Virus record (IMG/VR): IMGVR_UViG_3300032245_001163
Direction: 5' to 3' (one strand)
DNA length: 64,000 nucleotides
Source: a virus
Both the position numbers and the translations under genes were made by a program. The notes below the pieces were generated by a model. The model searched no databases and had not been told where the DNA came from. It worked only from the letters and a program-made list of their open reading frames with translations. Of the stretch, positions 7,844-37,542 are shown in pieces. Position 1 is the stretch's first letter, and each line of letters opens with the position of its first letter.

Positions 7844-9309
7844 CCTAGTTTCATCCAATCAAGTTTTTCCTGTGTAAAAGGATAATTGGCTTCTCGATAA
7901 AACTGTTTGCGCTTGGTCAAATGACGCTTGGCAAATTTGCAAGTTGAAGTTATGTCCCAAATTTGGACGTGGTCTTTGTCTTCTGCTTTGCGTATGCCAC
8001 GACCGATTGACTGAATGACACGCACAAAACTCTTACCAGGTTCAACAAGCACAAGATTAAAAATCCTAGGAATATTAATACCAACGGCAGCAACACCATA
8101 AGTCGCCACAATGATTTTATCAACTGCATCTGCTACCTCATCATATTCTGCTTGTCGTTTTGTTCCTTTGGTTGCTCCGGACACAAACACTGCCTTGTCT
8201 CCCAGCCGTGCAACCAATTGCCTACCGCACTCGGTACGATCCACCAACACCAATGTGTTGCCTGTTTCATTTACTTGCCGCACAAGATCTGCCATGGTGT
8301 CTAGTCGTCCTGACTCTTCCAGCAAGTATTTGAGTTCGCTTTGATAGTCCTTGTATTCCACATGGTCAATCAACTGCACAATATTCACATGGCAATTGGC
8401 AAGCACACCTTGTTGTTGCAGTTCATTGGCGCTGAGCTTGCCGATTACAGGACCAAGACTGACCAATAGTGCTTGGCTTTCAAACTTCTCTTTGGGCACA
8501 GTTCCTGTCAATCCCCAGCGAATTGGCACTCGGGCCATGACACCTGTTAACAAGGTTTTGAGTGCGTCTGCTTTGGCCATGTGTACTTCGTCTACAATAA
8601 CGCACACAACATCTTCAAGAAACTCGCCAATGGTACAGTCGCCTACTCCAGCCTTGGTATTCTTCAACAGGTTGTTTAGACTTTGCCATGTGCAAATTGT
8701 GTGCTGGCGTCCGTATTCTTTTCTGTCGCCAAAGTACACACCAACATCTTGTTGCATGTTGATATAGTCTGCTTCGGTTTGTGTAACCAAGCTCTTGTTG
8801 GGCACAATAACAATGCTACGTCCATAAGGAGCCACAGCATTGCTTAGTGCCGCTGTCATGATTGTTTTACCTGCACCTGTTGCTACTTCTTGTATGCATT
8901 GTGGATTGGCCAAAAAGTTGTTGATGATTTCCACTTGGTAGTCTCGCAACATAATGGATTGACCTGCGGCAGGATGTGTCTTGGGCCATTGAACATGTGA
9001 AAAGGATGTTTCTGAGACCTGTTCAAAGTTGAATGTGTTTGAATAGTCACGTTGATCATCCAATTCAACATCATAATCAAACTTTTCCAAGATGGGCATG
9101 ATCTCAGGCAACAAGTTCACATAAGTTGACCCACCCAGTTGAAAGTATGCTACCTTGCCGTCCCAGCGTCCCAGTCGTACAGCAGGCAAATAACGTGCGG
9201 CAGGGTTTTCATATTTGAAAGCATTGACCAGAGTCTTGCGAGCATCCAAGTCCAGGCCTTCGATCTTGATGTTTACTTCATCACGTATTTGTATGGTGCA
9301 TCGTTTCAT
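7840..9309 (-). CDS. uvsW: SF2 DNA helicase, UvsW-like
   Basis: LRDYQ Q-motif, ATGAGKT, DEVH, GLTGT, QSIGRGIR. Confidence 0.88.
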   Translation of the reverse strand: MKRCTIQIRDEVNIKIEGLDLDARKTLVNAFKYENPAARYLPAVRLGRWDGKVAYFQLGGSTYVNLLPEIMPILEKFDYDVELDDQRDYSNTFNFEQVSETSFSHVQWPKTHPAAGQSIMLRDYQVEIINNFLANPQCIQEVATGAGKTIMTAALSNAVAPYGRSIVIVPNKSLVTQTEADYINMQQDVGVYFGDRKEYGRQHTICTWQSLNNLLKNTKAGVGDCTIGEFLEDVVCVIVDEVHMAKADALKTLLTGVMARVPIRWGLTGTVPKEKFESQALLVSLGPVIGKLSANELQQQGVLANCHVNIVQLIDHVEYKDYQSELKYLLEESGRLDTMADLVRQVNETGNTLVLVDRTECGRQLVARLGDKAVFVSGATKGTKRQAEYDEVADAVDKIIVATYGVAAVGINIPRIFNLVLVEPGKSFVRVIQSIGRGIRKAEDKDHVQIWDITSTCKFAKRHLTKRKQFYREANYPFTQEKLDWMKLG

Positions 9310-10430
9310 ATGTATTGGGCCAGTTCTGGGAATATCTGTTTAAAATTTAGTTCACGATACCGATCGTGCTCGTGCAAGTAGTGTTTAAAGTTGCCAAAAT
9401 GTTCACTGTCATCTGTGTTTTCGACCAGCCCTGCCCAGGTCTGTACATCAGGATGTTGGCTGGTTTTTAATTTATCTACAATCTGTTGCCGAGCATGTTT
9501 GGTCCACACTGTGGGTCTCATATGTGCAGGAGTATGTACTCTACCCACCCATGGTCTAGGCAGTCCTGCATTATAACACCATGTAAAAAATTCGTCAAGG
9601 TAATAGATATTGTAGGCACTCACAGTATGACTCACGCTGAGCCGAAAGTTTGGTAAATTTTGGCACTCCAAATACCTGGCCAAATTGGGTTGTATTTGAT
9701 TCCAGTCTCCAGGATAGCGAATATAATTGTACTGTTTGTCTATTCCGTCTATGCTCAATTGCATGTCGATCTCTTTGAAGTGCTGCCATAACTTCCACCA
9801 TTCTTGATCGGGCCATACTGTGATATTGGTAGTATAATGCAAAACAATGTTGGCAGCCTGGCCAGTGTCAACGTAATGTTGCAACAAGGCTTTTTGCTCT
9901 GCAACACCACTGAGAAAAGGTTCGCCGCCCGGGATATCAATGTGTACCAGTTGCGGAGCCACACCTACAAAGTCTTGTACAAAGTTGTTCTTGTAAAAAC
10001 GAAAATTCTTTATGTCTTTGAGATAAATGGTTTGATATTCTTGTTGCCACCTACTGCTGTTATACGGAGTACATGTGATGCAAGCAAGATTGCAAGTGTT
10101 GCCAAATGCTATACTTGCTGTAATAAAATTATGCTGTTCAAAATCATAGTCAGTGTAATGCTGTTGCCATCGTGTAAAATCTAACTGTCTCTTGCTTTCA
10201 ATATTGTTTTTTTCTTCAATTTGGCATCGAGTACATCCACTAGGCCACTGACCTTCTTGAAATTGTTGTTGTATAGATTTTAAAAAGGCACTATCACGAT
10301 ATTGTTGTATAGTGTGATTGCCAATGTTAAATTTTTCATCGTACGTATTGGTAAGAAATTTGCAACAAGGAGACATATCGCCTACTGGGCTGATATCAAT
10401 GTTGGTCCAAGGAGAAAAACAAAAAGGCAT
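9306..10430 (-). CDS. radical SAM protein with N-terminal twitch-like Cys cluster
   Basis: FCFSPW...PCC, CTRC, CNLACITC, GGEP; start at MPFC (10430) just after a promoter. Confidence 0.88.
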   Translation of the reverse strand: MPFCFSPWTNIDISPVGDMSPCCKFLTNTYDEKFNIGNHTIQQYRDSAFLKSIQQQFQEGQWPSGCTRCQIEEKNNIESKRQLDFTRWQQHYTDYDFEQHNFITASIAFGNTCNLACITCTPYNSSRWQQEYQTIYLKDIKNFRFYKNNFVQDFVGVAPQLVHIDIPGGEPFLSGVAEQKALLQHYVDTGQAANIVLHYTTNITVWPDQEWWKLWQHFKEIDMQLSIDGIDKQYNYIRYPGDWNQIQPNLARYLECQNLPNFRLSVSHTVSAYNIYYLDEFFTWCYNAGLPRPWVGRVHTPAHMRPTVWTKHARQQIVDKLKTSQHPDVQTWAGLVENTDDSEHFGNFKHYLHEHDRYRELNFKQIFPELAQYI

Positions 10431-10437
10431 ATTGTAT

Positions 10438-12267: not shown

Positions 12268-13017
12268 TTAGCACCAGTTGTTTGCAATCACAGGGTCTGA
12301 TGTACATTCATGCGGCTTGGGACGGCCGTGAAATACCAAGATGCTGGTGTCGCCACCAATGTAGGCATTTGCTCCGGCACCGGGTGCATTGGGTTTTTTT
12401 GTGGCAAAGTTGTACCCGCCGTCTTGCACTTGCCAACGCCAACTTTGTAAGTGTTGTTGATCAAAATATCTGCGCTGGTTGGGATCAATTGCTATGCCTA
12501 AGTAATCTTGATCGCCGGGGTACTTAACCACAGTTCGATTGATATCCAGTTGATCAAACTCATTCCACACATGCGCATACCGGGCAACATTCCACCACAT
12601 CACACTGGAGTTCATGCCTGAATAACTTTTGCGTTGGAGATATCTAAAGTCTCTAATGGTCCAAAAACATTCTGTGCTCAGTGCTGGTATCCAACTTAGA
12701 TCATTTATGATCACACAATCAAGATCAAAATACAATAGATTACCTGCGTGATGTTCAGGATTGAACAACTGCATTTTGTACCACCACTCACGTTTGGGTC
12801 CACCAATCCCAGGCCATTCTTTTAGCGAGTGTTTGATCATGTGTGGCGGCACAGGTCTATCATGCTCGGTATACACATGAAAACGTATGCCATGTTGTAA
12901 ATTTCTCGACAGCATGTTATACAGTTTTTCTACATACACCCATTCATAACCAGTGCCATGTATCACACATGCACAATCAGTTATTGAGTCAGTGCGGGCT
13001 CGATTCTTTTTAGCCAT
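12268..13017 (-). CDS. GT-A glycosyltransferase (GT8-like)
   Basis: LYFDLD (DxD), NSSVM, GDQDY, VFHGRPKP. Confidence 0.8.
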   Translation of the reverse strand: MAKKNRARTDSITDCACVIHGTGYEWVYVEKLYNMLSRNLQHGIRFHVYTEHDRPVPPHMIKHSLKEWPGIGGPKREWWYKMQLFNPEHHAGNLLYFDLDCVIINDLSWIPALSTECFWTIRDFRYLQRKSYSGMNSSVMWWNVARYAHVWNEFDQLDINRTVVKYPGDQDYLGIAIDPNQRRYFDQQHLQSWRWQVQDGGYNFATKKPNAPGAGANAYIGGDTSILVFHGRPKPHECTSDPVIANNWC

Positions 13018-13832
13018 AGTCCTTGTCTCAATTCTTCCACAGTGTATTCAGTGTGGCATATCTGCACCAACCACAATTCCCTGTCTATGTCATAGGGTTG
13101 TTCAATATCAGGCATACCCACTGCCACAGGATATGCAAGACTGCTGTGTGCCACAATGGGTCTGCAACCTGCAATGCCTGCTTGTATGCCCGGTCCTGAG
13201 TTGTGATTTACCACAGCATGGCAGTTAAAGTGCATGTCAAAACTGTCGTAAGTGTTGACCACTGGCCGCGCAACTTCCATTGTGGTATTCTCAGGCATGT
13301 ATGGCATGCGCAAGGGTGAGCGTGGGTGCGCACGTATGCGTATAGGGCGATCAGTAGAGTTGCGTAGTTGTTGAATTTGCATCAGTACCCACGATTCCAT
13401 GCTACCAAGCCCGGCTACTTGTAAACTGTTACGATGTTGTGCGGCAACAATAATTTCAGGACCAGGATTGACTTGTGTGGCCAAACTTATCTGCAACTTT
13501 CGAGGACGATCCCAATCCAAATTGTCATAATGCCCGTAGTAGCCATCTCTGGTGATATGGTTTACAGCCAGTTTCCAAGTCTGTCCACGATACAGCGCAC
13601 CAATGTCTATCACAATCACCGGTCGGTTTTGCTTGCGGTAATGCTCGTAGACCCCTTGGTTGGTCTTCATCCTGCCATGCCACAACACTGACCATATCAC
13701 TGCGGCATCAGCAGTCATGGAATTCTCTTGTGTTTGTATGCCCGCGGCTTGACAGCAGTCTAAAAACGCTGACATCACAGGCTTGCTGTTCAATGCACAT
13801 TGGGCAGGAAAATAGGCTATGGATTTTATCAC
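12981..13832 (-). CDS. GT-B / capsule-biosynthesis-like transferase, paralog 1
   Basis: IRAHP, NHNSGPGIQAGIAG, DRELWL; probable GTG start at 13832 (track 13868). Confidence 0.6.
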   Translation of the reverse strand: MIKSIAYFPAQCALNSKPVMSAFLDCCQAAGIQTQENSMTADAAVIWSVLWHGRMKTNQGVYEHYRKQNRPVIVIDIGALYRGQTWKLAVNHITRDGYYGHYDNLDWDRPRKLQISLATQVNPGPEIIVAAQHRNSLQVAGLGSMESWVLMQIQQLRNSTDRPIRIRAHPRSPLRMPYMPENTTMEVARPVVNTYDSFDMHFNCHAVVNHNSGPGIQAGIAGCRPIVAHSSLAYPVAVGMPDIEQPYDIDRELWLVQICHTEYTVEELRQGLWLKRIEPALTQ

Positions 13833-13834
13833 TG

Positions 13835-13840
13835 TAAATA
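13835..13840 (+). promoter_or_regulatory. late promoter core TAAATA
   Basis: T4-like late -10 element 5 nt before ATG 13846. Confidence 0.65.
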
Positions 13841-13845
13841 CGCTT

Positions 13846-14628
13846 ATGAAATACACTGTATGTACCACTTTTAATGCCGAAGGCTACAAGACTTACGGCC
13901 AGCGAATGATTCAGACTTTTTTGCAGACATGGCCTCGAGATATCATGCTCAAAGTCTACGCCGAAGGCTGCCAAATAACTGAATCTGCACCCAATTTGCA
14001 AGTATTGGATTTGGAAGGTGTCAGTGCAGACCTTGTGGCATTCAAAAACAAATGGCGCAATGTGCCCAAAGCCAATGGCAACATTGGTCCTGGCAGCGAA
14101 CGCAAAGCATTCAAATGGCAAGCAGTGCGTTTTGCTCACAAAGTATATGCCATATTTCATGCTGCCAAAAACTGCAATACAGATTGGTTGATTTGGATGG
14201 ATGCTGACATGGTATGCCATAGCCCAATCACTGTGCCGCGTATTGCACAGTTCTTTCCAGATGATAGAGAATTGTGTTATGCAGGCCGTAGCAACAAGTT
14301 TACCGAATGTGGACTGTATGGCATGAACTTGCGGCGTGAACCTGTACAAAAGTTCCTCACAGAGTTCCAACGCATGTATGACGATGCTGAAAATGGTATC
14401 TTTACCTTGAGTGAATGGCACGATAGTTATGTTTTTGATGATGTTAAAAATCGCAGTGGCCTAGCAGAACTCAATTGGTCAGCAGGCTTGATCAATGGCG
14501 AAGGTCATCCCTTGATCAACTGCGAATGGGGTGCCTACATTGACCACCTCAAAGGCAAGCGCAAAGGCGATGGACGCAGTAAATTAAAAGACCTTGTGGT
14601 TCGACGCACTGAAAAATACTGGCAATGA
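13846..14628 (+). CDS. GT-A nucleotide-diphospho-sugar transferase
   Basis: RFAHKVYA, LIWMDAD (DxD), ECG, WHDSYVFD, HLKG. Confidence 0.75.
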   Translation: MKYTVCTTFNAEGYKTYGQRMIQTFLQTWPRDIMLKVYAEGCQITESAPNLQVLDLEGVSADLVAFKNKWRNVPKANGNIGPGSERKAFKWQAVRFAHKVYAIFHAAKNCNTDWLIWMDADMVCHSPITVPRIAQFFPDDRELCYAGRSNKFTECGLYGMNLRREPVQKFLTEFQRMYDDAENGIFTLSEWHDSYVFDDVKNRSGLAELNWSAGLINGEGHPLINCEWGAYIDHLKGKRKGDGRSKLKDLVVRRTEKYWQ

Positions 14629-15428
14629 TATTTTTAAGCAAGAACGGTGATGATGAATACATCGACATGTATGCACATGGGCTCGGGCTTGAGAGTACAC
14701 CACTAGAGTCATGGCGCTATGAGGACAGCACAGAGCCATTGATGCTGCGTGGTATAATGAAACACAAGATCATCAAGCAGTGCTGGGAGGACAAGCGTCC
14801 ATTTAGATACATGGACTCTGGATATCTAGGCAATCGCCCTGGTTATCAAAATCCTCACGGTTGGAAACATTGGCATAGAATAGTGCCCAACAATTTACAA
14901 CATGATCAGGTCATTCCGCGTCCCAGTGATCGGTGGAATCAACTAGGATTGGAAGTGGCCAATCGCCGTCGTGGCAGCACAATATTGATTGTTGCTCCTG
15001 ATGAAAAGCCTTGCAAATTCTACGACATAGAACTGGATGCATGGCTGTCAGAAACCGTTGCCACTATCAAACAACACACTGATAGGCCCATTGTGATACG
15101 TGAACGCAACAAGAGTCGCACAGATAGAAAAAACAATCGTGTGGAAAAAGCTCTAGATGATGTGCATGCTGTGGTAACATTTAATTCAATAGCAGGCACA
15201 GAAGCCATCTTGGCAGGTGTACCTGTATTTGCCTTGGCACCCAGCAATGCTGCTAGACCAGTGAGCAACACAGACTTGACTCGCATAGATAATCCGTGGT
15301 TTCCGGATAGAGATGAGATACTGGCTTGGGCATATCATTTGGCCTATGCTCAGTTTCACATAGACGAATTCAAGAACGGACGAGCAGAACGCATACTTAA
15401 ACAAACAGAGGAGATACTAAGTGCATGA
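14625..15428 (+). CDS. GT-B / capsule-biosynthesis-like transferase, paralog 2
   Basis: YMDSGYLG, VVTFNSIAGTEAILAGVP, LAYAQF. Confidence 0.6.
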   Translation: MIFLSKNGDDEYIDMYAHGLGLESTPLESWRYEDSTEPLMLRGIMKHKIIKQCWEDKRPFRYMDSGYLGNRPGYQNPHGWKHWHRIVPNNLQHDQVIPRPSDRWNQLGLEVANRRRGSTILIVAPDEKPCKFYDIELDAWLSETVATIKQHTDRPIVIRERNKSRTDRKNNRVEKALDDVHAVVTFNSIAGTEAILAGVPVFALAPSNAARPVSNTDLTRIDNPWFPDRDEILAWAYHLAYAQFHIDEFKNGRAERILKQTEEILSA

Positions 15429-16071
15429 ATACCAAGGGTGGTGGTTCCCAGATGCTGAATCACATTTTCCAAAGATGCTGAAGAAAAGCATAGACAAAGG
15501 CGGACCTGCTGAATATCAATACCAAGTGCGAGATCGTAGCATGACACATACCAAGCGGCGCGGTGTTGCACTAGATATTGGCGCTAATGTAGGTCTATGG
15601 AGTCGTAGTCTTTGCCGGAACTTCCGCACTGTGTTGGCTTTTGAGCCTGTGGCCATGTTTAGAGAATGTTTGATCAAGAACGTATCTGCAGACAATTTGC
15701 AAGTAAAAGACTTTGCACTAGGAGACAAGCAGACCCGCGCCACAATGATCATCACCGAAGGCAATACTGGCCATACACACATTGATCCTGCTACCTTGGG
15801 CACAGGTGAAACTCAAGTATATAGATTAGATGATTTAGAGTTGGATGAAGTAGACTATATCAAAATGGACTGTGAAGGCTACGAGTATCGCATACTACAA
15901 GGTGCCGAAGAGACTATCAAGAGATGCCGGCCTGTTGTAGTAGTAGAACAGAAGCCACACGATGCTTACAGTGATCAGTACGGACAACATGCTGCCATTG
16001 AACTCATGAAGTCATGGGGCATGGTCAGATTGGACCAAGTCAAAGATGATTGGATCATGGGTTGGAAGTAA
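15421..16071 (+). CDS. FkbM-family methyltransferase
   Basis: LDIGANVG, AFEP, IKMDCEGYE...LQGA, RPVVVVE. Confidence 0.9.
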   Translation: MHEYQGWWFPDAESHFPKMLKKSIDKGGPAEYQYQVRDRSMTHTKRRGVALDIGANVGLWSRSLCRNFRTVLAFEPVAMFRECLIKNVSADNLQVKDFALGDKQTRATMIITEGNTGHTHIDPATLGTGETQVYRLDDLELDEVDYIKMDCEGYEYRILQGAEETIKRCRPVVVVEQKPHDAYSDQYGQHAAIELMKSWGMVRLDQVKDDWIMGWK

Positions 16072-16859
16072 AGTACGCATGGTCGCCAGCAGTCAAAGGT
16101 GACTATGAAAAATGGTCTTTGGAACCCTGGCGGCTCAAAGGATTAGAAACATTTGATCTAATAGAGGACATTCCTGAAGATTATGTACTGGTTGTCAGCC
16201 ATTTTGCTCCGTGGTGGAGCCCACTTAAAGAATGGATTGCTGCCGGACGTGCTTGGATTGAAATAGAGTTTGGCTACTGGGGCGACAACGAGCCCAGGCG
16301 CAACACTCGTCGAGTTACATACTGCGGACATCACAATCTCAACATGCGCACTAGACCTTGGCCAAGGTCTCAATTGTTTGATGAGCCACGTGCCTTGCAG
16401 TCCTGGCGCACCATGCCTGGCAAATATGTTGTAATTCCCAAACCCATAAAAGAAATACTACAGCAACGTACCGGAGAAGATATTGTGGAATGGTGTGAAA
16501 AAATGGAAAGCATTGTTCGCACACACTGGGATGGCGAGATTGTATGGCGTAGCAAAGGCAGTAGCAAACCAGGGCGCTGGAACAGTTTTGTACGACTATT
16601 AGACGATGCACATGCTGTGGTAGGTGATCGAACCATGGCCTGTGTAGAAGCAGTGCTGTTAGGTGTACCAGCTTACACTATCGATGACAGTATGACCACC
16701 TTGCTCATGGGCGGAGTTGAAAACTTGGGCAACATTCAACATCCAGATAGATCTGACTGGTGGGATCACATTTGCTGGAGTCAATTTAATATTTGGGAAT
16801 TCACTGATTGCGCTGAATCTGTGGCTGACTTAGTAGAATCCTATCAAATTTACAAATAA
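16050..16859 (+). CDS. GT-B / capsule-biosynthesis-like transferase, paralog 3
   Basis: IEFGYWG, ACVEAVLLGVP, DRSDWW..ICWSQF; start uncertain. Confidence 0.55.
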   Translation: MDHGLEVKYAWSPAVKGDYEKWSLEPWRLKGLETFDLIEDIPEDYVLVVSHFAPWWSPLKEWIAAGRAWIEIEFGYWGDNEPRRNTRRVTYCGHHNLNMRTRPWPRSQLFDEPRALQSWRTMPGKYVVIPKPIKEILQQRTGEDIVEWCEKMESIVRTHWDGEIVWRSKGSSKPGRWNSFVRLLDDAHAVVGDRTMACVEAVLLGVPAYTIDDSMTTLLMGGVENLGNIQHPDRSDWWDHICWSQFNIWEFTDCAESVADLVESYQIYK

Positions 16860-17773
16860 GGCAAAAACTTTTGATAGATGCGACCTGCACGAGCATCTTC
16901 ATCACTCCAGTGTGCAGCCGCCAAGTCATATGCCCATTGTTCTCTTGAAAAAGTGTCTGGGGTCTCAATTTTAGAGACATCTTTGTTGGCTACACCCCAG
17001 GCCACACAACTACTATCATCTGCAAACACAGGAATACCTTCGCACACTGCTGCCACACTGGCTGAGCTGTTGAAAAACACTGCTGAATGTGCTCCTTGCA
17101 AGTTGTCAACTAATCTACTGTGTGTGGGTTCAAGTATGACCACGTTTTGTCTCTTGCCCATTTTGCTGGTATATGCAGCAAAATCTGTCATGTTGTACTG
17201 CCCTGGATGTGGGCGAACATATATTTGTCTACTGCTTACTGCTCTGATTTGATGAATTTTTTCGTGCAACCAAGTTATTGGATCCAGGGTTTTCATTGCA
17301 AATCCACCATCTCGTTGCATACAGATCAAAATGTGTCCTGCAGCATTAGTCCGTGCTGGTTTTAACTGCACTCCCAAGTTGCGACTTATCTCCAACCATT
17401 TTGATGCATCGCTATTTTTGTTAGCATACTCAGCACGATCATAAAATGGCCCGTTAAGGCTATATCTCAAATAACTGCCATGATCATCAAGATACTTCCA
17501 GCAGCTGGCATCTATGCACATGGTTTGAAACCCCAGTCTGCGCTGTTCAGGTATGATTTGTTTTCGCAAGGTGATGTTGCGTCCACCTGTGTTGGTAGTG
17601 GCCCAGCCCAGAATCACCGCCAACTTACTGGGTGTGTACTTGTGTTCCCATTCTACTCGAACTGTGTGTCCAGTTGCTCTTACTCCGTCGGCAAAACTTT
17701 CCAGGCATTGTATTTTCCTAGAATGTTTCTGTGGATTGGCCACTGAACTGATGTAAACAACTACATCAACCAC
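16850..17773 (-). CDS. GT-B / capsule-biosynthesis-like transferase, paralog 4
   Basis: VRPHP, FFNSSASVAAVCEGIP, REQWAYDLAAAHW; probable GTG start at 17773 (track 17800). Confidence 0.62.
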   Translation of the reverse strand: MVDVVVYISSVANPQKHSRKIQCLESFADGVRATGHTVRVEWEHKYTPSKLAVILGWATTNTGGRNITLRKQIIPEQRRLGFQTMCIDASCWKYLDDHGSYLRYSLNGPFYDRAEYANKNSDASKWLEISRNLGVQLKPARTNAAGHILICMQRDGGFAMKTLDPITWLHEKIHQIRAVSSRQIYVRPHPGQYNMTDFAAYTSKMGKRQNVVILEPTHSRLVDNLQGAHSAVFFNSSASVAAVCEGIPVFADDSSCVAWGVANKDVSKIETPDTFSREQWAYDLAAAHWSDEDARAGRIYQKFLPYL

Positions 17774-18728
17774 CCTGCAAAATTCTCCATGATGTGCCAT
17801 CGCGCATTTCAGGCTCGGTGAATTGGCAATAGGCCATGTGTGCTGCCCAACGTTCCACTTCGTCTAGTGTGGGCACGTAAGGATTGTTGATGTCATCCAG
17901 TGATTGACTACACAATGGTGCGGCTGCATTGGGACCAAGTGTAATGGCAGGTTTACCGTTGAGCAAGGCTTCGCCGGCAGCAATGCTTGAAAATGTAACC
18001 AAGCAGTGTATGTCTTGTTCCAGTGCATGTGCCATGCTATCATCGCTGGTTCTGGCAGTGCGCCCAGGTTTGCGGCGTACAATAACTTCACGGTCAGTCC
18101 GACCAGCAAGTTCTTTTAAAACATTGTCCAGCCACTGCTCTAACTCAATGTCATAGAGATTCAACAGCTTTTGACTAGGCGGTGCCAACAGTATCTTGCT
18201 GCCACGATAGAATTTGCGCGGTTGAAATCCTGTGGCAGCCAAGCGGTCTCTTGGTCGATCTATAATAGGACCAAAGTTTTGCACATCGTTTCGGGTTACC
18301 CGATGGAACGTTTTCTTTTTGCCGTTGCCAAAATATCCTGTGTCAATGTAATAAAAATCTCTACCGGCTTCTTTGCAAGCTCGCATTTCTTTGCGTTTAG
18401 TGATACCGCGCAAGATAACTGGTGTCATTGACTGCTCACTCTTGCTCCAGGTGGTTATTTGGCCACCAGCACCTATGGTAAAACTCTGTAATATAGGATC
18501 AAACATTTTTCCCTTTTCTGCATATCTAAATTCACTGTCAATGGCATGCACAGCTTGATTGTCTAGAGCCCGAATCTTTTCAGTCAATGCCTCTATGCTT
18601 AATCCGTAGTATTCACCTGCCGGGTCTACACGATATTTGATAAGGTCTCTAAACAGTTGCGCCAATTCTGGAGGCACCATGTCCAGTTCATGTTGAGGTA
18701 GCGGTGCTAGTTCTTGTTCTTCGTCCAT
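17766..18728 (-). CDS. GT-B / capsule-biosynthesis-like transferase, paralog 5
   Basis: YIDTGYFG, LVTFSSIAAGEALLNGKP, MAYCQF; closest to the 14625 ORF. Confidence 0.6.
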   Translation of the reverse strand: MDEEQELAPLPQHELDMVPPELAQLFRDLIKYRVDPAGEYYGLSIEALTEKIRALDNQAVHAIDSEFRYAEKGKMFDPILQSFTIGAGGQITTWSKSEQSMTPVILRGITKRKEMRACKEAGRDFYYIDTGYFGNGKKKTFHRVTRNDVQNFGPIIDRPRDRLAATGFQPRKFYRGSKILLAPPSQKLLNLYDIELEQWLDNVLKELAGRTDREVIVRRKPGRTARTSDDSMAHALEQDIHCLVTFSSIAAGEALLNGKPAITLGPNAAAPLCSQSLDDINNPYVPTLDEVERWAAHMAYCQFTEPEMRDGTSWRILQGG

Positions 18729-18729
18729 A

Positions 18730-20174: not shown

Positions 20175-20179
20175 GTTGA

Positions 20180-20185
20180 TATTTA
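20180..20185 (-). promoter_or_regulatory. late promoter core (TA)TAAATA
   Basis: 5 nt before ATG 20174. Confidence 0.7.
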
Positions 20186-20213
20186 TATACGCAGTTTTAT
20201 GGTAAGTAAATCA

Positions 20214-26897: not shown

Positions 26898-27871
26898 TGA
26901 AAATAATACCAGAGTTTAATGCCACGAAGCTGGTCTTGTGCTGTGGTCCACAACTGCAACTCAACTGTGTTGTCCTCACCTGAAGCCACAATGGATTTCA
27001 GTTCATCTGGAACGTTTGCTGTACGAGTCAAATGATTGCTGTGTTTTACACTCAACACCGAAGGACTTTCTAACAGTGCCCAGGAATTTTTTAAATTGTG
27101 CTGTTGTACATAAGAAAAAATATTCTTCAAGTTGCCAATGTTCAATGCACTCACTGTGGTCCAGGTGTTTAATTCATGCAGTCCCATGTCTTGATATGCC
27201 TGAATATTTTGTTCAACATCCGACCATTTGATAGGCCAACGCACATAGTCATGTCGACGACCAATGCCATCCAAGCTCACTGTCACTGTGACTTTGACGC
27301 CACGGTCAATCAATGCAGGCAATCCAGTGATCAATCTACTACCATTGGTGTTGACTCGCAGATATTTCACATTGGCTGGCAAGTTTTCCAACAATTTTAG
27401 ATAGTTAGGACTGGCACTGGGTTCCCCGCCATTGATGTCCATTTGCACAATACGTTCCACTGGCAGTGTATCAATCAATGCACTGTTGTTGATTTTGGTG
27501 TAGTCTTTTGTGTGTAGGCTACCAATCTTGGTGCTCAACGTTTCGTTGCAAGTCTGGCAGGCGCTGTTGCACACATTGTCCAATACACCACCCAACACAA
27601 GATAATCTGATTTGGCGTCCAGCAGTTGCGCATGTGTGTCCAGCGATTGTTGTCTAATGCTTTTGTTGCCAATGTTCTCAATTTCTTTGCAACGAACACA
27701 TTCATTGGGCCATGAGTCTTGACTCATACTGGTCTGAACATTAGCAAGCCAATCACTAGCATCCATTTGTTGCAGTGATTCAAACCACGGAGCATTGGTC
27801 ATATGGCCACAGCGGCTAACTGTGCCATTGAAATTAAAACGAACAAAATGATCTAGTCTAGGGCAATACAT
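26894..27871 (-). CDS. radical SAM protein with N-terminal twitch-like cluster
   Basis: YCPRL...RCGH, CVRC, CNSACQTC, NGGEP. Confidence 0.88.
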   Translation of the reverse strand: MYCPRLDHFVRFNFNGTVSRCGHMTNAPWFESLQQMDASDWLANVQTSMSQDSWPNECVRCKEIENIGNKSIRQQSLDTHAQLLDAKSDYLVLGGVLDNVCNSACQTCNETLSTKIGSLHTKDYTKINNSALIDTLPVERIVQMDINGGEPSASPNYLKLLENLPANVKYLRVNTNGSRLITGLPALIDRGVKVTVTVSLDGIGRRHDYVRWPIKWSDVEQNIQAYQDMGLHELNTWTTVSALNIGNLKNIFSYVQQHNLKNSWALLESPSVLSVKHSNHLTRTANVPDELKSIVASGEDNTVELQLWTTAQDQLRGIKLWYYFQ

Positions 27872-28478
27872 GTTTTATAATGTCAGGGTGATTGTGTTGA
27901 TAATGATTTAAAATTTGTGCCCAAGTCATTTCTTTGCCTGCTAGATCCAGTAATATTTGATCTAAAAACAACCAAAGCTCAATGTTGGCATCTTCTTCAA
28001 ACAGCATGGTTTCAAACTCTGCAGAAGGAGCAGTTATATAAGCATCAAAATCAATGTCAGTGATCATACCAAAATCACTGAAATTTCTTAGACGTATTTT
28101 TGTATCTTCTCTTAGATACTTGTTGAGATTTGCCAACCAATAGAATTGTGGCAAATAGTGTGTGTTTAAAAATTTATATCGACGTGCAAACCAAAATGCA
28201 GTCAAATAATCTAATTCAGGGTGGTCGCGTTGAAGATGTTGCAAGTAAGTGTTAATGCCACTGACATACCTGGCTCTAGGATCTCGGACGTACACATCTA
28301 CGTAATCGAGAGCACTTATTTCGTCATTGGTGAACACAGCAAGAGAATCTCTTGACTGCTGAATCCGCAAACTGCTGCTTCCGTTTTTCTGAATTAGATA
28401 AACCCATTGACTGTGAAGTGGTAGAGACACCACTTCACATAAGTTTGGAAACAGCTCTGTGTCCAGAGCTGTTCGCAT
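27858..28478 (-). CDS. sulfotransferase-like protein (Sulfotransfer_2 type)
   Basis: IQKNGSSSL (5'-PSB-like), VRDPRARYVSG (3'-PB-like), HYLPQ. Confidence 0.65.
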   Translation of the reverse strand: MRTALDTELFPNLCEVVSLPLHSQWVYLIQKNGSSSLRIQQSRDSLAVFTNDEISALDYVDVYVRDPRARYVSGINTYLQHLQRDHPELDYLTAFWFARRYKFLNTHYLPQFYWLANLNKYLREDTKIRLRNFSDFGMITDIDFDAYITAPSAEFETMLFEEDANIELWLFLDQILLDLAGKEMTWAQILNHYQHNHPDIIKHVLP

Positions 28479-29553: not shown

Positions 29554-29590
29554 AAAAAAGCGCAAACACTGTAGTAGTATATGCGCTCTT
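29554..29590 (-). terminator. probable terminator overlapping the ssb -10 box
   Basis: AGCGCAtATACT-actac-AGTGTtTGCGCT followed by a T run. Confidence 0.55.
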
Positions 29591-29604
29591 TGTCTACGTG
29601 TCAA
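29576..29604 (-). promoter_or_regulatory. sigma70-type promoter of ssb (late TATAAATA also at 29608-29615)
   Basis: TTGACA-N17-TATACT. Confidence 0.8.
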
Positions 29605-29615
29605 GTGTATTTATA

Positions 29616-32460: not shown

Positions 32461-34050
32461 TTAGTGTAACATTGATATGAATGGCATTGGTTCTATGATA
32501 TTATCGCTGTGATCTTTCATTTGTGTGTCTAGTTCTGCATGATAAGTCTGCAACATCATCAGCATGCGTACAGCCAACAGCGAGCTCATCACAAGATCGT
32601 CTGTTTCTCCAGGCTTGGCAGCATAACTGCCCCCTGCAGCAACAAATGTTTTGAGTTCTGAGATCAAGGGTCTGCTGTACAGCTTCATACGACCAGATTC
32701 TACCAGCACTTTGAACTTGTTGCAGGCTGTGAGTTTGGCTTTGTTTGTGGTGTTGAACCCTTTGCGGAATCTGCGTCCTGTGGTACCAGTAACTGAATTA
32801 TCACTCAAAAAGTACCCTTTGATGTTTTCTTCGCCGTATTCGCTGATACTGATTAGCGCAGCTTCGCCGATGGTGTTGTTTTCCACTGAATAGTAGATCT
32901 TTTTATCATCTTTGGTGATTTCATACAATTCATTCACAATGTCAGCCAGTAATTTGACTTGTGTGGGAATATCAGTTTTGTTGTGCCTCCATTCGGCCAC
33001 TTGTTCTGTAGTATCTGCTTCAAATACCTGTATGGCACTGGGATCGCCACCAGTGCCCAGGCTGGGATCCAGCGCCACAATGTATATTTTATCCTTGGTG
33101 GGTGTTTTATACCAACGCACTTGTCCTGTACGGCGCTGGGGTTCCACACCTTCCAAGTCCAACAATTTGGTAGGAGCGATTAGTGTTTCGTCATTGATAA
33201 CAAACTCACATTCCATTTCTCGCCGGAATCGATCTTCGCCTAGTTGTGCTAATTGTTCCAATCCCCACTGCTCATCTCTGTCAGGATGTTCACGCCAGTT
33301 GCTTCTAAATGCACGGAATCCGTTGATGCCCAGTTCTGTGGTGTTGCCATGCTCGTCCTGGGTCTTGTTGGCACCTTTCCACAGGTACGCAAATTGATCT
33401 TCGTCTGAGTTTGGAGTTGATGTGATAATGGCCTTACCACCTGTGGCCAGTGTGGGGCTAATAGAAGTCCAGAACTCTCGAGCAATAGTGGGTCGCACAA
33501 ACGCAAATTCGTCAGCGTACAGCAAGGATATACTCATACCCCGTCCAGTTGTTTCTGTAGTTGTCTGCGCCACAATACGTGATCCGTTTTCAAATTCCAA
33601 TGAGTTCTTGTTGTAGCTGGTGGCACCTGCTCGGATATGATTAGGGCACAGTTCATATGCATAACGTATACGTTGCATGATCTCCTGCGCACCTGTGTAT
33701 TTGTGTGCGGCAACTAGAATAGTCGAGTCCGGCACAAACATTGCATACCACAACAGGTAGCCAGCAGCTGAGGTTGACTTGCCTGTTTGTCGGGGCATTA
33801 GCGATATTGAATATCTGTAGTTGTGATATGTTTCAATCAGTCTGGTTTGATACTCAAATGGATGATACAACATCTTGCCGCGTGTGGGATGCTGAATAAA
33901 AAAGAAGTTGTCCATGAAGTACAATGGACCAGTTTTGGGATCAGCGCATCGGGCAAACTCCAGCAGTTCATCTTCAGTGTAGACTTCTTTGCGGTGTGGT
34001 GCCTTGACCAGCACTGTTTCTAAATTTTTACTTGTTGGTGGTGCGATCAT
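32461..34050 (-). CDS. terL: terminase large subunit (gp17-like)
   Basis: YQ motif, PRQTGKS, LYADEFAF, TSTPN, nuclease ALDPS..GGD, DDLVMS. Confidence 0.95.
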   Translation of the reverse strand: MIAPPTSKNLETVLVKAPHRKEVYTEDELLEFARCADPKTGPLYFMDNFFFIQHPTRGKMLYHPFEYQTRLIETYHNYRYSISLMPRQTGKSTSAAGYLLWYAMFVPDSTILVAAHKYTGAQEIMQRIRYAYELCPNHIRAGATSYNKNSLEFENGSRIVAQTTTETTGRGMSISLLYADEFAFVRPTIAREFWTSISPTLATGGKAIITSTPNSDEDQFAYLWKGANKTQDEHGNTTELGINGFRAFRSNWREHPDRDEQWGLEQLAQLGEDRFRREMECEFVINDETLIAPTKLLDLEGVEPQRRTGQVRWYKTPTKDKIYIVALDPSLGTGGDPSAIQVFEADTTEQVAEWRHNKTDIPTQVKLLADIVNELYEITKDDKKIYYSVENNTIGEAALISISEYGEENIKGYFLSDNSVTGTTGRRFRKGFNTTNKAKLTACNKFKVLVESGRMKLYSRPLISELKTFVAAGGSYAAKPGETDDLVMSSLLAVRMLMMLQTYHAELDTQMKDHSDNIIEPMPFISMLH

Positions 34051-34753
34051 TTAAAATTCTTTCTGCTAAAATTTCATGTCCTCTTGGACCAGCATGCATG
34101 TAATCTCTAGCATACTCTAATTTTTCTCTACTGTCAGCCATATAGACGTTGGCATCATATAACTGACATGGAACATTAATTGTGCGACAAAGTTGTTGCA
34201 ACGCCAATTTATTTTTTACAGAATTTAATCTGCTGTTTTCACTATTTAACATCCATTCAGTAATAAACGCATCACTGGCAGTTGGGGGCAAATTTGTAGG
34301 CATGTACACCATGTGTTCTTTTTGTGTTAGCACTTCAATTCTATCCACAGGAGGAGCAAGCATGACAACTAATGCAGGATTTAATCTCGGCAGCCAATAT
34401 TCAGCCAATCTAAAACAACTGTCCGCAGCATAACCTCCCCAGGCCAAGTTAACAACTTGCAACCCCAGTGCTTGTCCTACCAACCAAGGCCAAGTGGTTT
34501 CAACTGGTAATCCTATGCCCGCGGTATAACTGCATCCTAGTGCCACTATGCAAGGATCATTGTTGAATTCTTCGCATCTAAATCCTTCACTGTTGAATCG
34601 ATAAGTTATGGCACCTGGCTGATCCCAACCTTTTTCAGCAAAATATTGTTGATGTTCGGGTTCCTGCATCATTCTTGCAAATGATTCTGGTGTGTCAGAT
34701 GACAGCCATTCAAGAACAGAATTTGCTAATCGTTTTCCAGCATGCCAAGTCAT
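34028..34753 (-). CDS. SGNH-like hypothetical protein
   Basis: YRFNSEGFR, LGCSYTAG, NLAWGG, ARDYMHAG (DxxH). Confidence 0.6.
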   Translation of the reverse strand: MTWHAGKRLANSVLEWLSSDTPESFARMMQEPEHQQYFAEKGWDQPGAITYRFNSEGFRCEEFNNDPCIVALGCSYTAGIGLPVETTWPWLVGQALGLQVVNLAWGGYAADSCFRLAEYWLPRLNPALVVMLAPPVDRIEVLTQKEHMVYMPTNLPPTASDAFITEWMLNSENSRLNSVKNKLALQQLCRTINVPCQLYDANVYMADSREKLEYARDYMHAGPRGHEILAERILNDRTTNK

Positions 34754-34754
34754 G

Positions 34755-35891
34755 TTATAGTTCCTTTGCTATATTGGGCCACAAATCCACAAATTGTGTG
34801 GTCTTCTTTAGCATTGTTTCAATATCTTTATGCCATAATAACAAATCTGGTACAAAATCTTGATTGCCTAAATAACTGTTGTCAATCAATGTAGCACGAT
34901 AACGCAACAACACATCAGTGCTTAATTGTGTTTGATCTTGATATTTGGCCACTACGCGATCAATTTCTTCTACAGCAAGTTGTCGTAATGCAGAGGATTG
35001 ACGTCTTATATCCAGGTCCCAAGGGTTGGTCAATTCACACCAAAAAATATCTAATTGTTGATCAGCACAGAAGTCATAGTATTCCATCAAGTCTAATGCA
35101 CAGTAAACAGAATAAGCTGGATGTGCTTGAACTTTTTGACCGTCTCTTTTCATAATTTGTATGTTGTCAACAAACTGTGTCCATGACGCACCATGTCTGA
35201 CATATTCAAACTTGCTTTTGTCAGCATTGTCAAAACTGATCATCCAACTGACATTGGGCCAAGTCTTGAGTCGTTGATAGACAGCATTGTGTTCAAGATC
35301 CATGCTGAGATTTGTAGTAATCATTACACCGACCTTGTTGGCATCAATATAGTCTAAAAATTGTTCCAGTCCTCGTTGCAACAAAGGTTCGCCACCGCCT
35401 AGGCTCAGTCCTTGTATGTTGTGCCCTTGTGTGCGGGCTAGTTCTATTAGATCTGCATGTTCGTTCTTGACATGGTTGATGGGAATCTTTTTTATGCTTT
35501 GCCATGCTGTGCTGGTTTCGGGATTGCAGTACACGCAGGCAAGATTGCACAAGTTGCTCCAGTTTACAACTAGATGTTCTAGTTTGAAAAAATCAACGTC
35601 TGCATCAATTGCGGCTATGGTTTCTGCACTGGCTCGACGCACAGTTCTACCACTGACTCCTGTGGTTTCTTCCAATCTTTTGCACCATGCACATCCAGGT
35701 GCCCACTCTCCCTGTGCCATGGCCTGTTTCATGCCATTGATCACTGGTCCTGTTATAACTTCTTGAATGGTGTTTTTCTTTATGTTGCCAATCATGTCCA
35801 CACAGTGAAAGCACGGACTGACTTCGCCAGCTTGATCAATGTTGAGGCTGGTCCAAGGTGCTGGACAGAATGTGGGACTTTGACTAATCAT
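34755..35891 (-). CDS. radical SAM protein with N-terminal twitch-like cluster
   Basis: FCPAPW...PCFHC, CAWC, CNLACVYC, GGGEPLL; ATGA-coupled start at 35891. Confidence 0.9.
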   Translation of the reverse strand: MISQSPTFCPAPWTSLNIDQAGEVSPCFHCVDMIGNIKKNTIQEVITGPVINGMKQAMAQGEWAPGCAWCKRLEETTGVSGRTVRRASAETIAAIDADVDFFKLEHLVVNWSNLCNLACVYCNPETSTAWQSIKKIPINHVKNEHADLIELARTQGHNIQGLSLGGGEPLLQRGLEQFLDYIDANKVGVMITTNLSMDLEHNAVYQRLKTWPNVSWMISFDNADKSKFEYVRHGASWTQFVDNIQIMKRDGQKVQAHPAYSVYCALDLMEYYDFCADQQLDIFWCELTNPWDLDIRRQSSALRQLAVEEIDRVVAKYQDQTQLSTDVLLRYRATLIDNSYLGNQDFVPDLLLWHKDIETMLKKTTQFVDLWPNIAKEL

Positions 35892-36427
35892 TGTGGGTGT
35901 ATCCATGTATATGAAGTTATTCTATAACTGTCCGAAGGTGTGAGCATGGCATGCCACAGCAGCGGTCTATATCCTTGTTCATTGGCTTGATTGATCATGA
36001 TATAACCGGCATTAGGCTGCTCAGGTGTTTGATAGCGCAGGGTTGAAGAATCTTTGTGCCAGTAAAATGCTGTGCCAGGACCCTGCCAAGTTAGATGCAT
36101 GCTGCCTGGCATTTCACCGTCAGTGTGCATGCTACAAGTAAATCCTGGTTCATCCAGCCACCAGGCAGTGCCCGAGTAAGCATGTAATTGTTTTCCCACT
36201 TGTTGTTCTATCACAGGCCATTGACTGTTGATTTCTTCATGCCATTGTTTGATCCAAGGGATCGCTGAGTCTATTATGCGTCTACGTGCCCAGTTTTCTT
36301 GTCCTTCTTGGCGTTGCCAGGGTAATGTCAACCAATCAGTTTTTAGAACTTTGGTGGCCAGTTCCGCACTCACTGCATGTTCTATACGGAACAAATTGTT
36401 TTCGCCATCTACAGCAGTCACAAACAT
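35888..36427 (-). CDS. 2OG-Fe(II) oxygenase superfamily protein
   Basis: HTD...GTAF...WH...R-x-T facial triad pattern; start probably 36427. Confidence 0.7.
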   Translation of the reverse strand: MFVTAVDGENNLFRIEHAVSAELATKVLKTDWLTLPWQRQEGQENWARRRIIDSAIPWIKQWHEEINSQWPVIEQQVGKQLHAYSGTAWWLDEPGFTCSMHTDGEMPGSMHLTWQGPGTAFYWHKDSSTLRYQTPEQPNAGYIMINQANEQGYRPLLWHAMLTPSDSYRITSYTWIHPQ

Positions 36428-37542
36428 TGTGCAATCTCCGGCCATAATTTTTTAAACTGCCCTTGTGTGTCCAAGTGATACTGTTGTTCTATTTGTGTTG
36501 TATGCTCACGCAGTTTGGCTCTTAGGTCTTGTTTTGATTGCAAGTTTTGCAACACTGTTTCAAAAAACTGTTGCTCTTCTGGCAAACAAATGTTGTGAGA
36601 CAACAATTTTTTAATTTCATGTTGTGCCAATGCCACAACATCGGCACCTAGATTACTGGGGTCAAGACAGTTGGGTTGATACAGGCTTTGCCAGTGTATG
36701 GTCAGGCCACGATGTCTTGCAAAATCAGTCAGTTCCTGCAAATTAGTAGCATTGTATATGTTGTACACAGCATGTATACCGCCCCAGTGCCCTTGATCAC
36801 GCATGAGTTGTTGTATAGCGTCTAAATTTTTCAACAGCAATGGCCATGAGCCGCCATGTCGTACATATTCAAATCTCTCACCAATATTATCAAAGCTCAG
36901 ACTCCAGCCAACTCGTTGTCGTTGGGATAGTTTTTTAAATATGCGATTGTTTTCCAGTTCAACACTGGCATTGGTTATTAGGGTGACCACACAGTCTGGG
37001 GGTATCACATCCAACAGTCGATCGTTTTCAGGCAACAGCAAAGGTTCACCGCCTACCAAGGCCACTTCACGTATGTGGTCGTGATGCCGAGCAAGATAGT
37101 CGCACACCGCTTCGTAGTAGGGTCGTGCACCTGATGCCACAGGCATGTGCTTCAGTGCGGCCCATTTGCTACTGCATGCTTCGGCACAATAGTTGCAACT
37201 CAAGTTACAAGTAGTATTCCAACGCACATCAATCAGGGTGGGACGATGTTCAGTGTCGTTGGCAGTTTCACAGTCAAACTCTGGACTGACATTGTTGTGC
37301 CAATCTCGTTCACTGCGCCCGTAACGTTCGGCCTGCACACAGTTGTAACAGTAGGCATGCGGTTGCCCTTGGCGTATGCTCTGACGTATTTCTTGCATGA
37401 CAGGACCGTGCAAGATTTGTTCTATTGACTGTGAGTTGAGGTTACCCAGCATGTTGGGGTTGCCAGCACAGCAAGTTTTGACATCACCACGAGGATTGAT
37501 GTGCAGGCCGCGCCAGGGGGCTGCACAGTAGAAATTGCTCAT
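36418..37542 (-). CDS. radical SAM protein with N-terminal twitch-like cluster
   Basis: YCAAPW...TCC, CYNC, CNLSCNYC, VGGEPLL; late TAAATA 4 nt before ATG. Confidence 0.9.
   Translation of the reverse strand: MSNFYCAAPWRGLHINPRGDVKTCCAGNPNMLGNLNSQSIEQILHGPVMQEIRQSIRQGQPHAYCYNCVQAERYGRSERDWHNNVSPEFDCETANDTEHRPTLIDVRWNTTCNLSCNYCAEACSSKWAALKHMPVASGARPYYEAVCDYLARHHDHIREVALVGGEPLLLPENDRLLDVIPPDCVVTLITNASVELENNRIFKKLSQRQRVGWSLSFDNIGERFEYVRHGGSWPLLLKNLDAIQQLMRDQGHWGGIHAVYNIYNATNLQELTDFARHRGLTIHWQSLYQPNCLDPSNLGADVVALAQHEIKKLLSHNICLPEEQQFFETVLQNLQSKQDLRAKLREHTTQIEQQYHLDTQGQFKKLWPEIAQCL

Follow-up and report, generated by a model that had tools for sequence, protein, structure and literature searches.

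Radical S-adenosylmethionine (rSAM) enzymes with auxiliary clusters do some of biology's hardest reactions. The stretch of DNA analysed here, 64,000 nucleotides of the IMG/VR virus record IMGVR_UViG_3300032245_001163 (the window), carries seven rSAM genes, r1 to r7, all present, intact and on the minus strand. In six of the encoded proteins a domain homologous, by profile comparison, to the twitch domain of BtrN precedes the catalytic core instead of following it, and the genes are spread over at least four accessory cassettes inserted in the gaps between core replication, recombination and packaging genes. Tailoring of a sugar or nucleotide-sugar is the best-supported reading of their function and the one towards which we lean. 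What is new is a twitch-type rSAM in a permuted architecture deployed as probable phage tailoring cassettes; the family itself is already catalogued by NCBIfam as NF033640 (N_Twi_rSAM).

Family calls were made with Pfam (PF04055, PF13186) and NCBIfam hidden Markov models (HMMs), the curated cut-off of NF033640 being 170 bits. The seven open reading frames (ORFs) are the following:

r1, 9306..10430, minus strand: N-twitch rSAM of 374 amino acids (aa), directly downstream of UvsW; NF033640 298 bits; PF13186 (SPASM) at residues 33-99 of the long form
r2, 21687..22868, minus strand: N-twitch rSAM between UvsY and o89/o104/r3; NF033640 179.9 bits, PF04055 37.8 bits
r3, 23447..24151, minus strand: short rSAM of 234 aa with CNFACSYC and GGEP and no auxiliary Cys domain; PF04055 35.9 bits, Fer4_12 31.1 bits
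r4, 25198..26355, minus strand: N-twitch rSAM whose stop overlaps the UvsX start; NF033640 239 bits
r5, 26894..27871, minus strand: shortened, divergent N-twitch rSAM of 325 aa, truncated in the C-terminal helical region; NF033640 142 bits, model positions 12-323
r6, 34755..35906, minus strand: N-twitch rSAM; NF033640 195.8 bits, PF13186 29.9 bits, PF04055 47.6 bits
r7, 36418..37542, minus strand: N-twitch rSAM downstream of a DNA/RNA non-specific endonuclease gene; NF033640 206.5 bits, PF13186 45.2 bits

The start of r1 is probably the ATG at 10430 rather than the TTG at 10517 of the listed ORF, because the NF033640 model matches only from residue 32 of that long form. The NF033640 cut-off is passed over the full model length by r1, r2, r4, r6 and r7 and missed by r5 and by r3 (37 bits), the former being a shortened member and the latter lying outside the family. 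PF04055 is above its cut-off for r2-r6; r7 scores 26.1 bits and r1 is not listed, both being covered by NF033640. CxxxCxxC and GGEP are found in all seven proteins and superposing the r4 model on rSAM cores gives Z 11-13, as expected of the rSAM superfamily. Against NrdG2, QueE and MoaA, which are housekeeping families, the seven score 20-45 bits for cut-offs of 131-284, the best being 38.6 for NrdG2 (131), 34.4 for QueE (260) and 45.5 for MoaA (284). The best NCBIfam matches of r3 are generic and far under the cut-offs as well (viperin 39, NrdG2 34, QueE 28 bits). An initial annotation of this DNA had placed rSAM genes at these seven positions, had proposed HMM classification as a check and had named beforehand membership in housekeeping families as part of what would refute its pathway proposal; all seven positions hold, and none of the proteins is a housekeeping rSAM. 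As far as profiles and motifs can tell, family assignment and architecture are solid.

The motifs that the initial annotation had described as shared hold to different degrees. CxxxCxxCxxxxS and GGEP occur in each of the six N-twitch proteins, the serine lacking only in r3. The N-terminal cysteine cluster has the form C-x17/18-C...CxxC in r1, r4, r5, r6 and r7 but ends in Cx3C in r2 (C9, C28, C70-x3-C74), while the CxxPW form is confined to r1, r4, r6 and r7 (4 of 6), with CPRLD in its place in r5 and CSYKF in r2. The FxxLWP-type tail reads clearly as FxxLWPE[IL] in r6 and r7; r1, r2 and r4 have a degenerate form of it, and little of it is left in the short r5. In full, r1 reads CFSPW...CC...CTRC, CNLACITC and GGEP, and r5 has C3, C21, C58xxC61, CNSACQTC and GGEP. 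An alignment of 113 family sequences (residue numbers of r4) has as invariant or near-invariant positions the four N-terminal Cys, the three core Cys, S133, W136, GGEP, N203, S226, Y236, R238, W243 and N249; since this holds across 113 members, the shared motifs reflect family conservation and not chance.

When the family profile is compared with the PDB, it matches residues 165-243 of BtrN, that is its C-terminal twitch, with an E-value of 5e-9. A profile made from only the six window N-termini has BtrN as its sole PDB match, and all four of its cysteines pair with the CxxP...C...CxxC of BtrN (residues 166-241). The domain has the dimensions of a twitch, about 70 residues with hairpin and helix and a C-x~18-C...CxxC pattern, in which the cysteines are invariant or more than 90% conserved in the 113 sequences. 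On these alignments the N-terminal domain of the six proteins is homologous to the BtrN twitch, which bears out their earlier designation as twitch-type enzymes. The 2013 structural work of Goldman and co-workers on BtrN is said to show that those four cysteines fully ligate the auxiliary [4Fe-4S] cluster; by analogy, four-Cys ligation suggests an electron-relay auxiliary cluster here. The proteins are not of the SPASM type, having only four conserved N-terminal Cys and no conserved C-terminal Cys against the seven of the SPASM pattern, and the Pfam 'SPASM' match (PF13186) covers only the first half of that profile, at the N-terminus.

The likeness to BtrN (2-deoxy-scyllo-inosamine dehydrogenase, butirosin; PDB 4M7S/4M7T), the twitch prototype, is that of a homologous auxiliary domain with its four cysteines. 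BtrN carries its twitch after the core, whereas the window proteins have the permuted order, and BtrN has 250-270 residues without a C-terminal helical domain, whereas the window N-twitch proteins end in a helical C-terminus. With the domain order reversed and the BtrN match limited to the twitch, they do not qualify as BtrN-type dehydrogenases. The core region of the family profile matches TigE, SkfB, anSME, YydG, SuiB and MoaA, BtrN being absent there. The analogy to BtrN and NeoN drawn by the initial annotation thus covers the auxiliary domain and does not extend to the catalytic core, which is no nearer to BtrN than to BlsE, MoaA or the maturases of peptides synthesised ribosomally and modified post-translationally (RiPPs).

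An AlphaFold2 (AF2) model of r4 (predicted local distance difference test, pLDDT, 94.7; predicted template modelling score, pTM, 0.92) has a beta-hairpin (E19-22/E27-29) with helices, a partial TIM barrel and then a helical C-terminus of about 75 residues. Compared with solved structures, it aligns over the core only, with BlsE at Z 12.8, MoaA at 12.2 and SkfB, CteB, the pyruvate formate-lyase activating enzyme (PFL-AE) and anSME at 11-12, the template modelling (TM) score being about 0.4. BlsE (cytosylglucuronate decarboxylase, PDB 7VOB) and MoaA (PDB 1TV7), the best matches over some 220 residues, have nucleoside or nucleotide substrates and C-terminal auxiliary-cluster regions; identity to them is 13-16%, the core alone aligns, the Z-scores are tied with those of RiPP maturases, and the NCBIfam scores are 20-45 for cut-offs of 284-400. 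The SPASM/twitch maturases (SkfB, CteB, anSME, SuiB, TigE, YydG/EpeE) are equally similar in core fold and sequence, but the window proteins carry one auxiliary motif of four Cys, at the N-terminus, and a RiPP recognition element (RRE) or precursor peptide was not found. Sequence-profile and structure searches did not find this architecture among solved PDB structures. It is the same as that of NF033640, namely a four-Cys domain, CxxxCxxC, GGEP and a helical C-terminus ending in FxxLWPE. For NF033640 our literature search found no paper characterising the family, no substrate or reaction, and no PDB structure; on the N-terminal twitch family or on jumbo-phage rSAM arrays with glycosyltransferases it found nothing specific, an amoC-phage preprint mentioning only HpnH.

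The six N-twitch proteins share only 19-24% pairwise identity. On a FastTree tree of 113 family members each of them falls in a separate clade, beside metagenomic sequences and not beside the others, and their distribution requires six changes, as many as shuffled labels. Six separate deep clades argue for ancient paralogs or separate acquisitions rather than a recent expansion. The insertion points of these genes are defined by core genes identified with Pfam and PHROG scans of the window ORFs:

UvsW helicase, 7840-9309; a primase-like Toprim gene was also identified
UvsY, 21248-21700, core landmark
UvsX (RecA-like), 24159-25214, minus strand, core landmark
gp32, 28478-29473, core landmark
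Virion structural protein, 29616-32450
TerL (large terminase), 32461-34050, core landmark

Between them the cassettes are arranged as follows:

Cassette 1: r1, next to UvsW
Cassette 2: r2, o104 and r3, between UvsY and UvsX
Cassette 3: o206, r5, a short-chain dehydrogenase/reductase (SDR) gene and r4, between gp32 and UvsX
Cassette 4: r7, o185, r6 and an SGNH-like gene, in front of TerL

Within the cassettes the junctions are overlaps of 1-28 nt or one-base spacings, and such overlaps suggest co-translation. Comparison of window genes with two related contigs, L001 and L002, separates cassettes from core, the former being overall 53-87% identical and the latter (UvsX, TerL, gp32, UvsY) 93-98%. 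Identity to the two contigs is 78-81% for r4, 53-87% for r5, 53-81% for the SDR and 78-80% for o206; the SGNH-like gene (o241) has orthologs at the same place in both, at 50-55%. Counterparts of r6 and o185 are found in L002 only, at 82-84% (r6 82%). A 74% identical ortholog of r2 is present in L002 and absent from L001, where a different N-twitch rSAM of 518 aa fills the r2/o104/r3 slot; that it might be a fusion of r3 and o104 was ruled out, as it is another N-twitch rSAM with an N-terminal extension. Among 80 related IMG/VR loci, which are those found with an r4 search, r4 is present in 80, the SDR in 79-80, r5 in 79 and o206 in 71, while r3 and o104 are present in only 5-6. The four-gene cassette is very stable in content; in sequence all cassettes change more rapidly than the core, and swaps occur at times. 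The initial annotation had seen in these genes one dispersed pathway, a view that is not supported: the cassettes number at least four, neither their evolution nor their exchange is tied to one another or to the glycosyltransferase (GT) cluster, and the paralogs lie in six deep clades. Several independent tailoring modules are a better description than one linear pathway.

The partners of the rSAM genes within the cassettes are the following:

o104, 23152..23466, minus strand: 104 aa, six invariant Cys, C-terminal Cx4CxxC, always paired with r3
SDR181, 26352..26897, minus strand: compact SDR of 181 aa; adh_short 27.9 bits (cut-off 26.6), Epimerase 20.8 bits over the N-terminus
o206, 27858..28478, minus strand: minimal sulfotransferase-like candidate, directly downstream of gp32
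o241, 34028..34753, minus strand: GDSL/SGNH-like, its stop overlapping the TerL start; Lipase_GDSL_2 29.9 bits (cut-off 32.9), profile positions 1-69 only
o185, 35888..36445, minus strand: candidate 2-oxoglutarate (2OG)-Fe(II)-oxygenase-like protein between r6 and r7, with an HTDGE...H motif

Of the neighbours named by the initial annotation, the SDR is the firmest in these cassettes: its adh_short match is above the cut-off and it has the catalytic motifs TGHSAGIG, NNAQ, INIST and YRNQK (TGxxxGIG, Ser...YxxxK), although it is unusually short and its PDB matches are weak SDR matches over residues 66-167. For o206, neither Pfam nor the PDB gave a sequence match, and a Pfam scan of 29 of its homologs for the Sulfotransfer families was also empty. 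Its AF2 model (pLDDT 90.5) resembles sulfotransferases in 17 of the 17 best VIA matches and in most top Foldseek matches, all weak (Z 3.5-5.7; Foldseek E 0.2-1), the top ones being heparan-sulfate 3-O-, 2-O- and N-sulfotransferases; one of its neighbour clusters in the Atlas language-model space has Sulfotransfer_2 in 14% of members. The invariant residues are K31 (in QKNGSSS), N32, R65, R70 and H107, and of these K31, R65, R70 and H107 would fit the roles expected in catalysis and in binding of 3'-phosphoadenosine 5'-phosphosulfate (PAPS). The sulfotransferase-like neighbour is therefore putative, with a weak fold resemblance and no sequence-family match. The claimed 2OG oxygenase is in a similar position, since o185 has the HxD...H motif and language-model neighbour clusters with 2OG-FeII_Oxy_3 in 10-43% of members but no Pfam, PHROG or PDB sequence match, its 291 homologs being all unnamed. 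The SGNH-like assignment retains a partial GDSL_2 match that stays under the Pfam cut-off. As for o104, its possible roles are those of a substrate or of an Fe-S or zinc protein acting as partner; the idea that it is a detached twitch domain for r3 was ruled out, there being no profile similarity to the twitch (hhalign probability 0.9%).

Between r1 and r2 lies a GT/methyltransferase cluster of 9 kb (12268..21344, both strands), in which the methyltransferases and GTs announced earlier were found again, some of them weakly:

PHROG glycosyltransferase, at 12268
GT2, at 13819
FkbM methyltransferase, at 15421
GT8, at 18730
Cytidylyltransferase fused to a mannose-6-P-isomerase-type cupin, at 19410; 93% conserved in relatives
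Two weak Methyltransf_23-like genes, at 20133 and 20727

The cluster also holds five proteins without a family match. Three proteins of the cluster without a match, at 12981-13868 (minus strand, 295 aa), 14625-15428 (plus strand, 267 aa) and 16050-16859 (plus strand, 269 aa), cross-match one and the same gene in related contigs at 24-38% identity and therefore look like diverged paralogs of one unnamed family.

Outside the window the family is very large. At E<=1e-10 metagenomes yield 15,219 clusters (50% identity), and at E<=1e-30 the number is 6,380; relatives of r4 alone make up more than 120 clusters at 72% identity or above. Among 50,697 records of cultured phages, tblastn of r1 gave one weak match, in Ralstonia phage RsoM2USA. 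Many members are tandem two-module fusions of about 800 aa, some have three modules and some are fused to TPR repeats; these long fusions consist of two or three rSAM modules, some with TPR, and contain no sugar- or DNA-specific domain. One protein of 5,830 aa matches the family profile in 23 short stretches. Most of the representatives examined lie on phage-like contigs. On one phage contig an N-twitch rSAM is near a family-B DNA polymerase, an NDP-sugar epimerase/dehydratase, a DegT aminotransferase, GTP cyclohydrolase I and PTPS, and on a second phage-like contig a member stands beside PTPS, HIT and Fe-S_biosyn genes; the contexts of fusion proteins on two further short contigs were uninformative.

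In cells the family is patchy, since it was found in only one of 151 genomes sampled from the phylum of its bacterial carrier. That carrier is a metagenome-assembled genome (MAG) of 2.3 Mb, G004, with seven family copies; it was reached via the TPR fusion P0130, whereas pattern searches for cellular loci with r1 and with family alignments yielded none. Four of them are in an operon-like row opened by an NTP_transferase gene (sugar-1-P nucleotidyltransferase family) and followed by about ten rSAM genes, which include two B12-binding rSAMs and the TPR fusion, and then by GDSL-like and asparagine-synthase-like genes. This small genome is unusually rich in rSAM genes, with 44 Radical_SAM matches in rows of 4-11 genes (contigs C41, C19, C51 and C30).

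A 212-kb relative of the window phage, IMGVR_UViG_3300023184_004198 (G001), has about 10 N-twitch matches and 12-13 rSAM matches in all. It also encodes two A-type Fe-S carriers (Fe-S_biosyn, 89703-90005 and 158681-158983), one of them 0.6 kb downstream of an rSAM gene, which suggests that the phage supports its own Fe-S enzyme load. A T4-like environmental viral genome of marine origin, in which 12 rSAM genes go with a gene for an A-type Fe-S carrier (ATC), has been described (Nishimura et al. 2017, PMC5332604). It resembles the present lineage as an uncultured T4-like phage with a large rSAM complement and, as in G001, phage-encoded Fe-S carriers; that study counts the genes as Fe-S proteins without family, cassettes or function, and its phage is marine whereas the present one is of a lake lineage.

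Sugar or nucleotide-sugar tailoring is favoured because the partner classes fit, because the bacterial operon is headed by an NTP_transferase, and because the auxiliary domain is homologous to that of BtrN. All partners that could be identified belong to types often met in sugar pathways (GT2, GT8, PHROG GT, FkbM, cytidylyltransferase-cupin, SDR, sulfotransferase-like), and the closest solved core to the r4 model, that of BlsE (Z 12.8), acts on a nucleoside-sugar, which may be counted on the same side. Substrate, reaction and final target are what we infer in the following scheme. The core [4Fe-4S] cluster (CxxxCxxC) would cleave SAM to a 5'-deoxyadenosyl radical, which would abstract a hydrogen from a C-H of the sugar or nucleotide-sugar; the auxiliary [4Fe-4S] cluster of the N-terminal twitch, presumably ligated by Cys throughout, would then take up the electron of the substrate radical, as in BtrN. 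The product may be a keto-sugar, or else a sugar that has been epimerised, rearranged or edited in some other way. It could be reduced by the SDR, sulfated by the sulfotransferase-like protein and hydroxylated or (de)acylated by the oxygenase-like and SGNH-like proteins, and the GT/methyltransferase cluster would use the edited sugars. Given the ancient divergence of the six paralogs, it is probable that each has a substrate or position of its own, and the cassettes would act as separate, exchangeable tailoring modules.

Several observations weigh against this scheme. The fold of the r4 model does not discriminate between sugar, nucleotide and peptide substrates: the neighbours of the core are mostly peptide-modifying SPASM/twitch enzymes with scores equal to those of BlsE and MoaA, and therefore it gives no indication in favour of sugars. 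Of the four cassettes, three lie away from the GT cluster, in operons with gp32, UvsX and TerL. The literature yielded no NF033640 member with a known substrate, only one such bacterial operon is at hand, from a family that is rare in cells (1/151), the sulfotransferase, oxygenase and SGNH assignments are weak, and guilt by association in a hyperplastic region of a phage genome is weak evidence.

The equal scores of peptide-modifying enzymes are the starting point for the strongest rival, in which the N-twitch proteins, like most SPASM/twitch enzymes, would introduce cross-links, epimerisations or other radical changes into phage or host proteins (e.g., of the virion) or into small peptides. 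Besides SkfB, CteB, anSME, SuiB, TigE and YydG/EpeE, the best sequence or structure neighbours of the core include ChlB, secondary NCBIfam matches are to PapB, MftC, YhhB and XyeB, and the TPR repeats of some family members are a protein-binding module. A Cys-rich protein (o104) adjoins r3, and an oxygenase-like or Asp/Arg-hydroxylase-type neighbour occurs in the window and in L094. However, the maturase neighbours score far under their family cut-offs, o104 accompanies only the twitch-less r3 and only in 5-6 of the 80 relatives, and the other small protein at hand, o89, is a highly conserved acidic core protein and not a variable precursor. Pfam scans of the cassette genes found no RRE/PqqD-like domain, leader-type precursor, protease or exporter, although an undetected RRE does not exclude protein substrates. 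Since the partner enzymes are moreover those typical of sugar chemistry, protein or peptide modification appears unlikely, if less so than the remaining rivals.

The operons in which the cassettes are found suggest another role, hypermodification of the dNTP pool or of DNA, possibly via a sulfated sugar or side chain, in evasion of restriction. Cassette genes are co-oriented and overlap with gp32, UvsX, UvsY and UvsW, and one cassette is downstream of a gp32 promoter region with sigma-70-like and T4-late-like boxes (consensus matches). Position alone says little, because T4-like phages routinely park accessory genes between core genes. On other phage contigs N-twitch rSAMs lie near genes of the 7-deazaguanine route (GTP cyclohydrolase I and PTPS/QueD), and Lee and co-workers reportedly showed in PNAS in 2018 that rSAM and pyridoxal phosphate (PLP) enzymes act in thymidine hypermodification of phage M6. 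Yet Pfam scans of the window ORFs gave no TGT/DpdA, QueC, dNMP hydroxymethylase or DNA glycosyltransferase. The cassette genes also evolve 5-10 times faster than the adjoining DNA-metabolism genes and are swapped between close relatives, a turnover that one would not expect where polymerase and packaging machinery have to tolerate the DNA chemistry. We regard a role in DNA or nucleotide modification as improbable.

No better placed is a non-glycan small-molecule chemistry unrelated to the GT cluster, for example of a cofactor, lipid, aminocyclitol-like metabolite or signal that reprograms the host. The twitch prototype BtrN does act on an aminocyclitol and the closest cores, MoaA and BlsE, on nucleotide-type small molecules, and in the bacterial arrays N-twitch and B12-binding rSAMs stand together with an asparagine-synthase-like gene; however, no polyketide synthase (PKS), non-ribosomal peptide synthetase (NRPS), terpene or inositol-type cyclase was detected in the window, where no partner classes are abundant other than glycosyltransferases, methyltransferases and a nucleotidyltransferase. 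Least probable of all is a new DNA hypermodification in which the gp32-linked and sister cassettes would make a radical-edited, possibly sulfated sugar that is attached to phage DNA or to replication-stage nucleotides.

Whichever product the cassettes make, the presence of many anciently diverged copies in giant phages of lakes and oceans (six in the window, about 10 in G001), in conserved and presumably translationally coupled cassettes with candidate partners for redox, sulfo-, acyl- and glycosyl-transfer steps, and in G001 together with Fe-S carrier genes, amounts to a heavy investment, which implies that the product is important for infection. NF033640 is very large, mostly on phage-like contigs among those examined, reversed in domain order and catalogued without characterised chemistry, and the identity of the product, be it an unusual virion or host-surface glycan, a modified nucleotide or a modified protein, would define both a new enzyme chemistry and a new phage strategy.

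Some indications on expression come from consensus matches, from which function can be presumed only. Exact TATAAATA boxes, which are T4-late-promoter-like, number four in the window where chance predicts 1.5, and each of them is intergenic and directly upstream of a gene:

TATAAATA, 20180-20187, minus strand: just upstream of the cytidylyltransferase-cupin/GT operon
TATAAATA, 29608-29615, minus strand: before gp32
TATAAATA, 52500-52507, minus strand: before the tail sheath gene
TATAAATA, 56095-56102, plus strand: before a virion protein gene
Putative promoter region ahead of gp32 and its cassette, 29576..29615, minus strand: TATAAATA abuts TTGACA-17-TATACT, a near-consensus sigma-70-type match, followed by some 100 nt of leader with AAGGAG

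Should these signals prove real, early as well as late expression would be expected of the gp32-linked cassette, and late expression of part of the GT cluster.

The majority of the window genes are on the minus strand. TerL shares 51% identity with its counterpart in Pseudomonas phage PA5oct and 49-52% with those of giant Sinorhizobium and Agrobacterium phages, and megablast with 20 kb of the window found no DNA-level match among cultured phages. Judged from this kinship together with the missing DNA match, the window comes from a giant T4-like lake phage that is uncultured; related contigs number hundreds in metagenomes and IMG/VR, with lengths up to 223 kb. The recombination genes enclose one further small gene:

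o89, 22868-23137, minus strand: 89 aa, zero Cys, poly-acidic tail, between UvsX and UvsY

Residues 1-61 of o89 are 97-98% identical in relatives, a conservation on a par with that of UvsX, and by this measure o89 looks like a core protein of the recombination module. Tail sheath and tail tube genes likewise belong to the T4-type core set found by the Pfam and PHROG scans. There are two sheath-type genes, one for a very large tail sheath of 1,111 aa (49139-52474, minus strand) and one for a protein of 467 aa (57447-58850, plus strand) that matches tail sheath and sheath-stabiliser PHROGs. A DUF3008 segment lies within the protein of 954 aa at 42389-45253.

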